From a virus, in the IMG/VR virus record IMGVR_UViG_3300037245_003526, positions 152,297 through 216,296 of that record: a DNA stretch of 64,000 nucleotides. One strand, 5' to 3'. This document shows, piece by piece, positions 27,152 to 30,430 of this stretch; the first letter of the stretch is position 1, and every line of letters starts with the position of its first letter. Position numbers and translations under genes: made by a program. The notes below the pieces were generated by a model. That model saw only the letters and a list, made by a program, of their open reading frames with translations, was not told where the DNA came from and made no database searches.

Positions 27152-27775
27152 CTATCCGAGTGATTGAATTGTTTCGTTGATTGTTGCTCGACTTCTGGAG
27201 ACTTTATTGATATTGACCAACATAGGATTTGGACCCCTATTATCAATAACAGCAGCTAGTAACCAGGCACCACTACTTGTCTCCACAACAGGAATTTCAA
27301 GATTCTGAGTTCCGCAGGTTACAATGAGTTTGCAATTTGCTTCTCTGAAAGTACTACCTCCATAGTTATTAACAGAAATTGCAATAAGATCGTACTTGGT
27401 CAAATCCTTGAAATGGATATTTTCCTCATTGCTGGTTCTATCTACACCATCAACACTTCCACCAATTCCGCTATCCTTGTCAAGTTTGATAAAAGGATGT
27501 CTGTCAAGACTTCCTTTCATCCCATGATAAATATGAACTTCATCTTGATAGGATTCAGGTGAATCTCCGACAACATTTTTAATGAAATTCTTTAAGAAAC
27601 CTTTCTTCTTCGGAGGTTGAGCAGCACCTTCTTTCTTCGGTAAAGCTAAAGAATGAAGATCCATATCTATAGCGGCAAGTTGTTTTGTTCCACCCCACCA
27701 CAATTTCGCATGTACCACATGATCACCGGATCCTTGCAATTCTTGTTTATCTCCGGGTTTTTCCATTAAAGCCAT
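27152..27775 (-). CDS. terD: TerD-family protein
   Basis: KLWWGG..DMDLH and the GxGxDGxD...(I/L)...I.F.V.I pattern match the TerD domain; start placed at internal Met M13 with an RBS. Confidence 0.6.
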   Translation of the reverse strand: MALMEKPGDKQELQGSGDHVVHAKLWWGGTKQLAAIDMDLHSLALPKKEGAAQPPKKKGFLKNFIKNVVGDSPESYQDEVHIYHGMKGSLDRHPFIKLDKDSGIGGSVDGVDRTSNEENIHFKDLTKYDLIAISVNNYGGSTFREANCKLIVTCGTQNLEIPVVETSSGAWLLAAVIDNRGPNPMLVNINKVSRSRATINETIQSLG

Positions 27776-27811
27776 AACTATAGTTTCCTTTCTTTTTAAA
27801 TAAATGGCCAC

Positions 27812-27868
27812 TCACAAAATTGCAAGCGGCCATTCATGTTTACATATAAAGATGGTCAGATCAAACAG
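27812..27868 (-). terminator. intergenic hairpins (AATGGCC..GGCCATT; CAGAT..ATCTG) between island genes
   Basis: inverted repeats in the 57-nt gap downstream of the tandem TerB gene. Confidence 0.3.
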
Positions 27869-28636
27869 CTATATCTGATTCATCTCTAACACGGCTTCGA
27901 GAATTGGACTGATCTCGGTGGCCTCGGATTTAATGGCAGTCATGGCGGACAGTTCACAGGGATTGTATTTTCCATCACCCTTAATCATCTCAACGAACTG
28001 TGTTGCCTCTTCATCCGATACAACGCCTGGGGTATCATCATCGGCCAACATAACATCTGTCATAACCTTTACATAGAACGGTTCCCATTTTTCTGAACAC
28101 TCGCTCAGTTTGGCATCCGTAAGGTCATTTATTTCCTGAACAACCTTTGCTTCGTCCCAGGTAACTTTCGCACCACCATCTCCACCGGCACCGTATACGA
28201 AAGCTTCCAGGATTTCAATCTCATCATCATCAACGATTCCATCCTCAGCAATCAGATCAACGATACATTTTGAAACATGTGCAATAAGCTTCGGGTGAAC
28301 CTCGGTACCACGGGCACACATTTGGGTAAGTGCATAAAGCTCAAGGCTATCAATATCCTCGAGTAGGGTGATGAGTGTATCCGCTTCGGATTCATCAACA
28401 ACACCTGGGGTGTCCTCATCATCAAGGGCATATGAGCAGAGAATATCGGTATACAGAGTTTTCCATTCGGGAGCATTTTCTGCTCCGGACAGTTCATTCT
28501 GCAGCTCTGTTGCGATACGCAGCTCTTCGAGATCAACCTTACCATCTTCGAAAACCACTGTCCGAAATTCGACACACTCTTCGGCATCCATAATGCCATT
28601 TTCAACAAACTTTGCTTTAAATTCTTGTAAGCTCAT
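27869..28636 (-). CDS. tandem TerB-like domain protein (two acidic repeats)
   Basis: two ~120-aa repeats, each with (A/E)DGxVDxxE(L/I) and DEDTPGVVDESEA / DDDTPGVVSDEEA; RBS GAGGAGAAAA. Confidence 0.45.
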   Translation of the reverse strand: MSLQEFKAKFVENGIMDAEECVEFRTVVFEDGKVDLEELRIATELQNELSGAENAPEWKTLYTDILCSYALDDEDTPGVVDESEADTLITLLEDIDSLELYALTQMCARGTEVHPKLIAHVSKCIVDLIAEDGIVDDDEIEILEAFVYGAGGDGGAKVTWDEAKVVQEINDLTDAKLSECSEKWEPFYVKVMTDVMLADDDTPGVVSDEEATQFVEMIKGDGKYNPCELSAMTAIKSEATEISPILEAVLEMNQI

Positions 28637-28673
28637 TTTGTAATTTTCTCCTCGTACCTTTTAAATGTTAGTG

Positions 28674-29285
28674 TTATATTGCGAGACCTTCGCTAAGCAT
28701 CTCAACCATTTGCGGCGTTTTCGTTGGAGCAGTTGCCAACATACATGATTTACTCATGTTAACAACCTTCGGACCCATTTCACTGGTATTGTCGATTCTG
28801 GCAATCCATGAAACATTTGCTCCACTTTTAAGATCACCACAATCGAGGGTTATATCATGAATCACAGGATCGCCGGCGCCGTAAGTTTTAACCTCGATAT
28901 GAGCCGCTGCTTTGTCAAACCTTGCTTCATGACTGTCTTTGATTGCTCCCCAGTCCCAGGCAATAAGATCAAGATAGTTGTATGGATCAAGACTGAATAC
29001 GGAAGCTTTCTCAACCCTTTCAACATCAATGGGTTGTTTATCCTCTCCCTCAACTCCTGCATCTTCTGACATAAGAATGAAGTCAGGAGCATTTCTGTTT
29101 CCCTGTGAGGCAAAACAGAAGATGGATTTTGAACCATCTTTTTTGGTTGCAAGGATTGCAATATCAAGATCAGGAACTATATCTTGACCATTTTCATTGA
29201 AACCCTTCCATTTCAAACTGTTCATCATGCTTTCAAACTTGTCTTCCAGGTTTGCTGATTCGCCCGGTTTACACATGTCGGTCAT
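28674..29285 (-). CDS. terD: TerD-family protein, second copy
   Basis: PDLDIAILATKKDGSKSIFCFASQGNRNAPDFILMSEDAGVEGEDKQPIDV fits the TerD pattern; start at internal Met with RBS AAAGGAGAAAAG. Confidence 0.5.
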   Translation of the reverse strand: MTDMCKPGESANLEDKFESMMNSLKWKGFNENGQDIVPDLDIAILATKKDGSKSIFCFASQGNRNAPDFILMSEDAGVEGEDKQPIDVERVEKASVFSLDPYNYLDLIAWDWGAIKDSHEARFDKAAAHIEVKTYGAGDPVIHDITLDCGDLKSGANVSWIARIDNTSEMGPKVVNMSKSCMLATAPTKTPQMVEMLSEGLAI

Positions 29286-29344
29286 TGCTTTTCTCCTTTC
29301 AAAAATAGAATTAGAATCGTATATAATAACCACAGCGGTTACTA

Positions 29345-30430
29345 TCAAAGTAAGATGAAACCAGAAATAATATAAAACAGATAAAATATGAATAGAAATT
29401 TAGCGTGCTTCCATCTGAATGTATGAGTCAAAAAACCCAACATAAGGAGTATTGCTACAATTGGAAGTGCCCAAATATATCCAACTAATAGTTCAGGAAA
29501 AGATCCAGTTGTGTATACTTGCATATCTTCTTTTAAGTATATTGATCGAAACCCTGAGAATCCAAGATCTATAACATTACTACCAAATAACATTGCTAAC
29601 AGTTCATCTTTTTTATCTTTAATAATGAATCTGAATGCTAACATAAATTCAGGTAAACTGCTTACATAAGAGGTAACTGCTAAAAGAATACCTCCTATAG
29701 AAACTATTCCTAACTTACCCAAATTGAATGTTGCCATCATACATAACATAACGAATATTACAAGACCGAATAAAAGAAATAAATACTCAAATGAATTCTT
29801 TACCATTGATCCTGTCCATTCAGCAAGTTCAGTCTTTGGATGAGGTACAAATTCAATTTCTTCTTCTTCCTCATCATCTTTGAATAACTGATACCATTTA
29901 GTATATGGGAATAATACTTGAAATAAAATAAAGAATATTCCCATTCCCATTAAAGACCATGATTCAATATAACTTAATGTACCATCAAGTATGAATATAG
30001 CTAACATACCTGATGCTGCTATATAAAATCCAAGACTAATTATTGTACTAGGTCTATATGGAACTAGTGCTTCTTTTTTAACTTTCTCTGCTACAATCAT
30101 TATTATAATTGCAAGAGCTCCAATTCCTAATAAATTATCCATAGCTGAAAATGCCATGTTTAATGTTCCTGAACATGCTTTCTCTCCTGTTTGAAGAGCA
30201 TCAAACATTCTTATTGATATGAATGGAGTAGCTGCTAAGATTGCCATGGTTATTTCACCACCTGAAGTAGCGAAAGCTTGAAGTGTTGAAGCTATTACTG
30301 ATTCAGGAAGTCTTAAAAGTCTCCCTATCCTTACTCCTATTTCTTCAAGAGGGTCAGTAATTTTCAAAAGTAGGTAACAAGATGCAGCTAAACAGAATAA
30401 TGATGATGAAATAATTAGAAAGTTGTTCAC
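29345..30430 (-). CDS. CaCA-family cation/Ca2+ exchanger (YrbG-like) integral membrane protein
   Basis: two alpha-repeats, GRLLRLPESVIASTLQAFATSGGE and IGGILLAVTSYVSSLPEF (GTSLPE-like), separated by an acidic loop (DDEEEEEIE); ~10 TM helices; GTG start with RBS AAAGGAGGA. Confidence 0.5.
   Translation of the reverse strand: MNNFLIISSSLFCLAASCYLLLKITDPLEEIGVRIGRLLRLPESVIASTLQAFATSGGEITMAILAATPFISIRMFDALQTGEKACSGTLNMAFSAMDNLLGIGALAIIIMIVAEKVKKEALVPYRPSTIISLGFYIAASGMLAIFILDGTLSYIESWSLMGMGIFFILFQVLFPYTKWYQLFKDDEEEEEIEFVPHPKTELAEWTGSMVKNSFEYLFLLFGLVIFVMLCMMATFNLGKLGIVSIGGILLAVTSYVSSLPEFMLAFRFIIKDKKDELLAMLFGSNVIDLGFSGFRSIYLKEDMQVYTTGSFPELLVGYIWALPIVAILLMLGFLTHTFRWKHAKFLFIFYLFYIISGFILL

Follow-up and report, generated by a model that had tools for sequence, protein, structure and literature searches.

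In classical Ter clusters, TerD paralogs and TerB are encoded around the membrane protein TerC. We describe here a block of six genes in which TerD-fold and TerB-type proteins are encoded beside a different membrane protein, an exchanger of CaCA, a family specific for Ca2+, and which begins with a major vault protein (MVP) homolog. The block lies in a 64,000-nucleotide stretch of viral DNA (positions 152,297 to 216,296 of IMG/VR record IMGVR_UViG_3300037245_003526; this whole stretch is called the window below). Its genes can be assigned at the family or fold level, they are arranged like an operon, and the arrangement is conserved in related phages.

Ter clusters of the terZABCDEF type, which serve in tellurite resistance and stress responses, were reportedly surveyed by Anantharaman et al. 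in 2012. Abbreviated TerD-TerC-TerF-TelA operons are present in jumbo phages (Iyer et al. 2021, PMC7824862), and Klebsiella phage phiKp34 has an abbreviated jumbo-phage Ter operon. The Jug jumbo phages possess terD genes and a Ca2+ P-type ATPase, and manipulation of host Ca2+ has been proposed for them (Sci Adv 2026, PMC12880540). Viral MVPs have also been described, in a paper that contains neither 'tellur' nor 'calcium' (bioRxiv 10.1101/2023.11.10.566534). MVP is related to TelA according to Suprenant 2007, as relayed in PMC3762200 and bioRxiv 10.1101/872010, and the MVP shoulder domain is related to SPFH/band-7 proteins (PMC3762200; bioRxiv 10.1101/872010). Phage Ter genes, a phage Ca2+ P-type ATPase beside terD genes, and phage MVPs are therefore already published. 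A CaCA exchanger linked to TerB and TerD was not found in the literature searched; the 2012 Ter survey may mention a CaCA context.

The block resembles the Ter clusters in having several TerD-fold paralogs and TerB beside one polytopic membrane protein, in its carriage by jumbo phages, and in a vWA-TerF-like gene, which is present in two sister cassettes (L002 and L014; comparison loci are denoted by L numbers). A large helical or scaffold protein is encoded alongside in both cases, TelA in the Ter clusters and MVP here. The block differs from the Ter clusters in that its membrane protein is a CaCA exchanger unrelated to TerC, its TerD-like proteins are too diverged to match Pfam TerD, one of its TerB proteins is a tandem, highly acidic duplication, and TerA, TerZ, TelA, PRTase, HAD, and ATP-grasp are absent. 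The Jug phages and the phage studied here are both huge phages with a Ca2+ transporter, a predicted one in the present case, and several TerD proteins. The transporter is a secondary exchanger here and a P-type ATPase there. The transporter gene is contiguous with the TerD and TerB genes in our block, whereas the terD genes of the Jug phages are described as belonging to other operons, where they accompany a pspA-like and a hypothetical gene, and TerB is not mentioned in the paper describing them (PMC12880540).

The membrane protein is a CaCA-superfamily exchanger

The only membrane protein encoded in the block matches Pfam PF01699 (Na_Ca_ex) over two stretches (8e-11, 42.5 bits against a cut-off of 24.9), and no protein of the block matches the TerC Pfam model. 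The YrbG model TIGR00367 gives 27.1 bits against a cut-off of 179.65. Judged by these model scores the exchanger is not a YrbG equivalog but belongs to a separate clade, which has at least 157 members that are 45-60% identical. A profile of 35 members has NCX_Mj, to which the exchanger is about 18% identical, as its sole match among PDB sequences. An AlphaFold2 model built from the 35-member alignment (pLDDT 79, pTM 0.79) has ten predicted transmembrane (TM) segments in an inverted-repeat fold like that of NCX_Mj, CAX, and YfkE. When this model was compared with the PDB using Foldseek, the top 26 matches were all CaCA proteins (CAX_Af, NCX_Mj, NCLX, CAX1, VCX1, and YfkE), with TM scores up to 0.76 and E values down to 9e-6. 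These results agree with a first-pass annotation of this DNA, in which a CaCA exchanger of the NCX/YrbG type was proposed and TerC was named as the competing identity. TerC and other transporter families were rejected because all the fold matches, like the PDB sequence match, are to CaCA proteins.

The same annotation had singled out two alpha-repeats, 'ATSGGE' and 'SSLPEF', separated by an acidic loop. The repeats consist largely of residues that are invariant in 35 homologs (Table 1; G82 of alpha-1 is likewise invariant), and they align with the GTSLPE motifs of NCX_Mj. The acidic loop was located at D210-E218, between the two halves of the protein. All homologs have a D/E-rich loop of varying length here, and pLDDT is <50 at residues 214-219. 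If it corresponds to the loop joining TM5 and TM6 in NCX_Mj, it would be cytoplasmic.

For ligand mapping we used the 12 ion ligands of NCX_Mj that were reportedly described by Liao et al. in 2012. The NCX_Mj sequence in the alignment was confirmed to be identical to 5jdf_A. Residues A47, T50, S51, and E54 of NCX_Mj align with A77, T80, S81, and E84 of the exchanger, A206, T209, S210, and E213 align with S279, S282, S283, and E286, and S236 and D240 align with S309 and D313 in the segment 'FGSNVIDL', downstream of alpha-2. Ten of the 12 ligands are identical in the exchanger and the other two are conservative replacements; among the 35 homologs, each position either never varies or has a conservation of 90% or more. 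The exchanger thus shares with the NCX_Mj/YrbG proteins its fold, its alpha motifs with two central Glu residues, and most of its ligands. It differs from them in that its TM2-TM3 connection is longer, its central loop is acidic, and its gene, in phages, is embedded in a Ter-like operon. The exchanger is predicted to move Ca2+ or another cation. Its first ~23 residues are of low confidence and are missing from most homologs, so the true start may be later than the one listed. The exchanger protein is also recorded on a 244,552-bp JGI contig.

TerD-fold and TerB-type proteins

Two TerD paralogs were claimed in the first-pass annotation, and both are present on the minus strand as members of one TerD-fold family. 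They are linked to each other by BLAST through homologs at L003 (6e-8 and 2e-33), and they align together. Two homologs of protein 2 (P0128 and P0129) bear the JGI name tellurium resistance proteins. The best Pfam TerD score in the family belongs to the L002 member, with 21 bits against a cut-off of 25.3. The family profile gave only chance-level matches to PDB sequences, such as eL30, and none to TerD. A word-indexed protein search gave two matches when protein 1 alone was the query, and 10 when the family profile was used; a Pfam TerD label is carried by none of these. An AlphaFold model of protein 1, built from an 11-sequence alignment (pLDDT 80.4, pTM 0.82), has the TerD beta-sandwich fold, and the Foldseek results agree. 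The top Foldseek match of the model is Chlamydomonas radial spoke 1 (7jtk_A; E=1e-4, TMq 0.55), with bacterial TerD structures ranking behind it; this match hints that a ciliary protein of eukaryotes may contain a domain like TerD.

Klebsiella pneumoniae TerD binds two Ca2+ ions, according to the account in PMC8779313, which cites Pan et al. 2011. That account places the Ca1 site at residues 40, 41, 42, 78, 79, and 89, with Ca2 at residues 29, 82, 84, and 88. A global profile alignment of low confidence equates D39, D41, D75, E92, and W26 of protein 1 with D40, D42, D78, E89, and W29 of K. pneumoniae TerD. These five residues and G77 are invariant in 18/18 family members. At positions equated, with the same low confidence, with W29, D40, D42, D78, and D88/E89, protein 2 keeps W, DxD, D, G, and EE. 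The Ca2 ligand D88 is replaced by Val in protein 1 and by Glu in protein 2. The presence of the first-site residues in both proteins and the Val in protein 1 suggest that the first Ca2+ site is probably kept in both and the second perhaps in protein 2 only. The DxDxDG-like Ca2+ motif ascribed to TerD at first pass was not borne out, the actual arrangement being DxD plus GDN...DDE. The broader idea of Ca-binding motifs in these ORFs stands as far as the invariant acidic residues go; their placement on D40, D42, D78, and E89 of TerD is of low confidence.

The last gene of the block encodes a canonical TerB. Its match to Pfam PF05099 (1.9e-13) scores 51.1 bits, the cut-off being 24.4; it also matches phrog_632, annotated as 'tellurite resistance' (1.8e-16), and its alignment with K. 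pneumoniae TerB covers the full length. The tandem protein is more distant. Its N-terminal and C-terminal halves match each other by BLAST (E=6e-13), and its match to Pfam TerB is weak (10.8 bits, E=0.61). A search of 1.84 billion representatives recovered 365 relatives of it at E<=1e-3. Of the 64 that were sampled, 10 have a match to Pfam TerB (4e-15 at best) and 2 to DUF533, a related family. A profile of the repeat unit aligned with TerB proteins, including that of K. pneumoniae, with an hhalign probability of 70.5% (E=3.9e-5), and the 'DG-x-hD-x-x-E' motifs are in register in this alignment. Two of the three TerB units are assigned by these comparisons at the superfamily level. The count of three units given previously is reasonable, as the tandem duplication plus the canonical TerB, except that the last TerB lies outside the interval 27152-30430 in which they had been placed.

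The MVP homolog

The first gene of the block encodes a homolog of MVP. Its match to Pfam MVP_shoulder (7.3e-20) scores 71.6 bits, with the cut-off at 25, and its scores against Pfam Vault_3 (22.3 bits) and Vault (12.8 bits) are both below cut-off. A phmmer search against the PDB returned only MVP chains (5.5e-7), with collinear segments at 258-389, 507-649, and 698-778. The protein has the MVP layout of N-terminal repeats, a shoulder, and a long C-terminal helix, of which the cap-helix is deduced from the sequence only. It has no TM segment (maximum KD19 of 1.1). It shares a full-length layout and phage carriage with the bacterial and phage MVP homologs already reported (bioRxiv 10.1101/872010; 10.1101/2023.11.10.566534). 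Those homologs have been described without a Ter or Ca2+ context, whereas here, at the level of genes, MVP heads a CaCA-TerD-TerB block.

Sister contig L028 has the same MVP-CaCA adjacency, with 82% identity to the window in MVP and 93% in CaCA, and is too close a relative to be independent evidence. MVP homologs with 40% identity are also encoded in two 'uncultured phage' genomes, LR756501 (735 kb) and LR756500 (462 kb), which are among the largest known phage genomes. Their products are 809 aa (L026 9001-10989, in LR756501) and 827 aa (L027 9001-10992, in LR756500), and the neighbors of the two genes include DFP, Macro, HD/AAA_33, and a phage metallopeptidase. An obligate role of MVP in the module was rejected, since L001-L004, L007, and L014 lack MVP and no Ter genes adjoin the MVP genes that other huge phages carry.

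Organization and base composition of the locus

The window is a low-GC (about 0.30) jumbo-phage stretch with PHROG matches to portal, major head protein, DnaB helicase, DNA polymerase B, and NAMPT. These matches uphold the earlier suggestion of a phage-encoded module, from which the MVP gene had been overlooked. The six genes occupy the minus strand from 33386 to 26680, inside an otherwise plus-strand region, in the 5'->3' order MVP - CaCA - TerD - 2xTerB - TerD - TerB. When homolog-supported starts are used, the intergenic gaps are 70, 59, 37, 93, and 10 bp. The TerD and TerB genes all follow the exchanger gene; they do not flank it, as had been stated at first pass. This layout, with a strong hairpin resembling an intrinsic terminator at its end (Table 1), suggests that the block is transcribed as one unit. 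Sigma-70-like matches in 33387-33553 are weak and not above those in shuffled controls. Riboswitch control like that of TerC (yybP-ykoY) was rejected, as an Rfam search gave no match.

Table 1. Features of the six-gene block and its borders (window coordinates).
Feature	Position	Strand	Remarks
Divergent intergenic region 5' of the MVP gene	33387..33553	.	Presumed promoter region
MVP homolog, 936 aa	30576..33386	-	First gene of block, 70 bp upstream of exchanger gene
CaCA-superfamily exchanger, 386-aa ORF	29345..30505	-	Pfam Na_Ca_ex
Alpha-1 signature A77-F-A-T80-S81-G-G-E84	30254..30277	-	A77, T80, S81, E84 invariant in 35 homologs
Acidic loop D210-E218 (DDEEEEEIE) between exchanger halves	29852..29878	-	Read from sequence
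Alpha-2 signature S279-Y-V-S282-S283-L-P-E286	29648..29671	-	S279, S283, P285, E286 invariant; S282 >=90%
TerD-fold protein 1, 203 aa from MTDM...	28674..29285	-	
Tandem TerB-like acidic protein, 255 aa	27869..28636	-	pI 4.05, 24% D+E; two repeats of ~125 aa
TerD-fold protein 2, 207 aa from MALMEKPGD...	27152..27775	-	Lys-rich insertion; belongs to the family of protein 1
Canonical TerB, 153 aa from MGLGDIF...	26680..27141	-	Pfam TerB; listed ORF start 27246 is an upstream extension
Intrinsic-terminator-like hairpin at block end	26598..26640	-	18-bp stem with 6 GC pairs, 7-nt loop, T-run; 40 bp past TerB stop

The GC content of the cassette is 0.376, compared with 0.303 in its surroundings. 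GC at third codon positions (GC3) is 0.29-0.42 in the TerD-type and TerB-type genes and 0.13-0.20 in core phage genes; the exchanger gene, at 0.19, is phage-like. In every contig checked (window, L001, L002, L003, and L014) the cassette is 4-12 GC points above the flanking phage DNA. The offset might stem from an exchange, mosaic or recent, of the soluble components.

An array of 21 tRNA genes occupies 4243-26587 (+) of the window. Its last tRNA (26513-26587), which has a CUA (amber-suppressor) anticodon, adjoins the terminator of the cassette. Recoding of TAG in the window was rejected despite this tRNA: coding length showed no gain, ORFs were extended less by read-through of TAG than by that of TGA or TAA, and several cassette genes end in TAG. 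A 250-aa ORF at 23658-24410 (+) overlaps predicted tRNAs for Lys (23660-23747) and Cys (24321-24406), so that either the ends of this ORF are spurious or the region is unusually compact. Nicotinamide phosphoribosyltransferase is encoded at 4-1386 (+) (phrog_448, 2.7e-140).

Conservation and distribution

The window, L002, and L003 are large phage-like contigs in which the genes that border the cassette are the same on either side. The gene order is small TM protein - CaCA - TerD - 2xTerB - vWA-TerF-like - TerB in L002 (304 kb) and PgpA - small TM protein - CaCA - TerD - TerD - 2xTerB - TerD - TerB in L003 (174 kb). The three exchangers occupy the same site yet are mutually only 53-58% identical, which indicates that the cassette is old and has long been retained in this lineage. 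CaCA genes near TerD-like and/or TerB-like genes were also found in L001, L004, L007, L008, L014, L015, L016, L019, and L029. Of these, four are phage contigs or resemble them, namely L001 (335 kb), L004, L007 (318 kb), and L029. L014 is a Patescibacteria-binned contig that also has a vWA-TerF-like gene, and L008, L015, L016, and L019 are of uncertain origin. Because the same gene set recurs beside this CaCA clade in many independent contigs, the arrangement is not due to chance. Among GenBank phages, neither megablast with window positions 26-34 kb nor tblastn with the exchanger gave a match. In IMG/VR pattern scans, the CaCA profile hit a single locus, and MVP had no hit.

A PgpA-like gene (phosphatidylglycerophosphatase A family) lies directly upstream of CaCA in one phage contig, L003 (9282-9809), and in three contigs from bacterial metagenome-assembled genomes (MAGs), L005 (9484-9987), L013 (4890-5387), and L015 (2183-2680). 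It is a second conserved partner of the exchanger. A Planctomycetota locus has two Band_7/SPFH genes a few kb upstream. Within 10 kb of the cassette, counter-defense proteins are encoded in L002 (an Acb2/Tad1-hairpin protein, 1933-2229) and in L001 (an anti-Pycsar metallo-beta-lactamase of the Apyc1 type, 17933-18892).

Discussion

The reading we favor, and to which we give about an even chance of being right, is that the block is a Ter-type cation module carried by the phage, with the usual membrane component, TerC, replaced by a Ca2+/cation exchanger of the CaCA superfamily. This reading goes beyond the first-pass annotation in recognizing a Ter-type module with TerC replaced, in its conservation within a phage lineage, and in the inclusion of an MVP homolog. 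The six genes would be transcribed together. The exchanger would be placed in the host inner membrane and would move Ca2+ against Na+ (or, less likely, H+) through an ion pocket like that of NCX_Mj. Beneath the membrane, the acidic, soluble TerD-fold and TerB-type proteins may bind a divalent metal, whether Ca2+ or a different one. Toward the exchanger they may have the role of sensors, buffers, or regulators, the kind of role that TerB and TerD are believed to have around TerC. The MVP homolog, with its SPFH-like shoulder, could serve as a sub-membrane scaffold, the role proposed for TelA in the classical Ter and TelA systems. The net effect would be phage control of host cytoplasmic Ca2+ and of the state of the membrane during a long jumbo-phage infection. 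Host Ca2+ homeostasis or a Ca2+-dependent defense is a plausible target, and the candidate benefits are Ca2+ homeostasis in a long infection, superinfection exclusion, and the blunting of Ca2+-linked or membrane-linked host responses.

Several observations weigh against this reading. Neither TerD-like protein matches Pfam TerD (PF02342) at E<=10, and hhalign against K. pneumoniae TerD, TerE, TerZ, and TerF gives a probability of only 7%. Because of this low value, TerD identity had to come from structure, and the mapping to the Ca2+ sites, in which protein 1 has Val at the position of a Ca2 ligand, depends on a weak alignment. The register of the TM3 ligands is ambiguous, the equivalents of NCX_Mj S77/N81 being either S112/N116, which automatic alignments pick, or S120/N124, which an internal N-x3-S-x3-N/D symmetry suggests; both pairs are conserved. 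The MVP homolog does not match Pfam TelA at E<=1. MVP adjoins the cassette only in this phage and its close sister, and the MVP genes at L026 and L027 have no Ter or CaCA neighbors. Finally, copies of the exchanger clade stand alone among housekeeping genes, without Ter, in MAGs of Planctomycetota, Desulfobacteraceae, Aminicenantes, and Sumerlaeota. These solo copies indicate that the clade does not need Ter partners and that it is cellular in origin. From these gene neighborhoods it appears that the exchanger works alone in bacteria and is joined with TerD and TerB mainly on phage genomes.

The same parts could serve a different purpose and respond to a different trigger, in a Ter-type conflict system for the exclusion of superinfecting phages or of competing mobile elements. 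The TerB-like and TerD-like proteins would then sense attack, and the exchanger with the MVP scaffold would alter ion flux or structure at the membrane and so block a second phage. Such a role has been proposed for jumbo-phage Ter operons (Iyer et al. 2021, PMC7824862), and classical ter operons confer phage inhibition and colicin resistance. The Acb2/Tad1 and Apyc1 genes show that counter-defense functions are encoded in the same 20-kb stretch in L002 and L001, and the accessory genes of the cassette vary (MVP, PgpA, vWA) in a way typical of conflict systems. We nevertheless consider this explanation unlikely. The PADLOC defense models match none of the six proteins, on which ground a known defense system was rejected; the nucleoside-signal biosynthesis module of full Ter systems (PRTase, HAD, ATP-grasp; compare the K. 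pneumoniae locus) is absent; and the invariant ion pocket favors ordinary coupled exchange over a triggered pore. Base composition raises another explanation, that the block is a 'moron' acquired from bacterial hosts, whose main effect would be to make a host that is infected or pseudolysogenic tolerant of xenobiotics, tellurite, or metals, and which would have no specific role in phage replication. The cassette GC and the GC3 of the TerD-type and TerB-type genes are above those of the rest, the same offset is seen in L001, L002, L003, and L014, phrog_632 is filed under morons and host takeover, and close CaCA relatives are present in bacterial MAGs. This is made improbable by the location of the cassette, which is shared by three diverged jumbo phages, by the phage-like GC3 of the exchanger gene, and by the TerD-like family, which has no close cellular counterpart among the matches retrieved, its 10 relatives being on short metagenome or phage contigs.

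The ion itself could be a different one. The exchanger might carry a cation other than Ca2+, for example Mn2+, Mg2+, or monovalents only, and the TerD-like and TerB-like proteins might bind that ion or a small molecule. TerC, whose place CaCA takes here, belongs to a family that is now linked to Mn2+ export (PMC10197570). The failure of the YrbG model (27 bits against 180), the G/P-E in place of L-P-E in alpha-1, and the extra invariant polar residues of TM3 (S112, N116, and D123) also point in this direction. Against them stand a ligand set nearly identical to that of NCX_Mj, structural neighbors that are all Ca2+ transporters, and the solved K. pneumoniae TerD (2kxt), which binds Ca2+ by the account in PMC8779313; a non-Ca2+ substrate is thus highly improbable. 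A bolder version of Ca2+ handling, which we rate as a long shot, is an organelle-like phage device, in which an MVP cage or sub-membrane lattice is tethered to the exchanger and lined with acidic TerB and TerD binders and would clamp or store Ca2+, for example to silence abortive infection triggered by Ca2+ or by membrane damage. If this were true, the replacement of TerC would show that the Ter core is at heart a Ca2+-handling machine.

The actual role of the Ter proteins has been obscure for decades. On the favored reading, that of a Ter-type cation module with a CaCA exchanger in place of TerC, a transporter of a Ca2+ family at the position of TerC would provide independent genomic-context evidence for the handling of divalent cations by the Ter core. 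The block is a compact six-gene system in which the idea of a link between Ter and Ca2+ could be tested. It would also add a second, mechanistically different Ca2+ transporter, as predicted, to the repertoire of huge phages after the P-type ATPase reported in 2026. For the prokaryotic and viral MVP homologs, it offers a first suggestive functional neighborhood.

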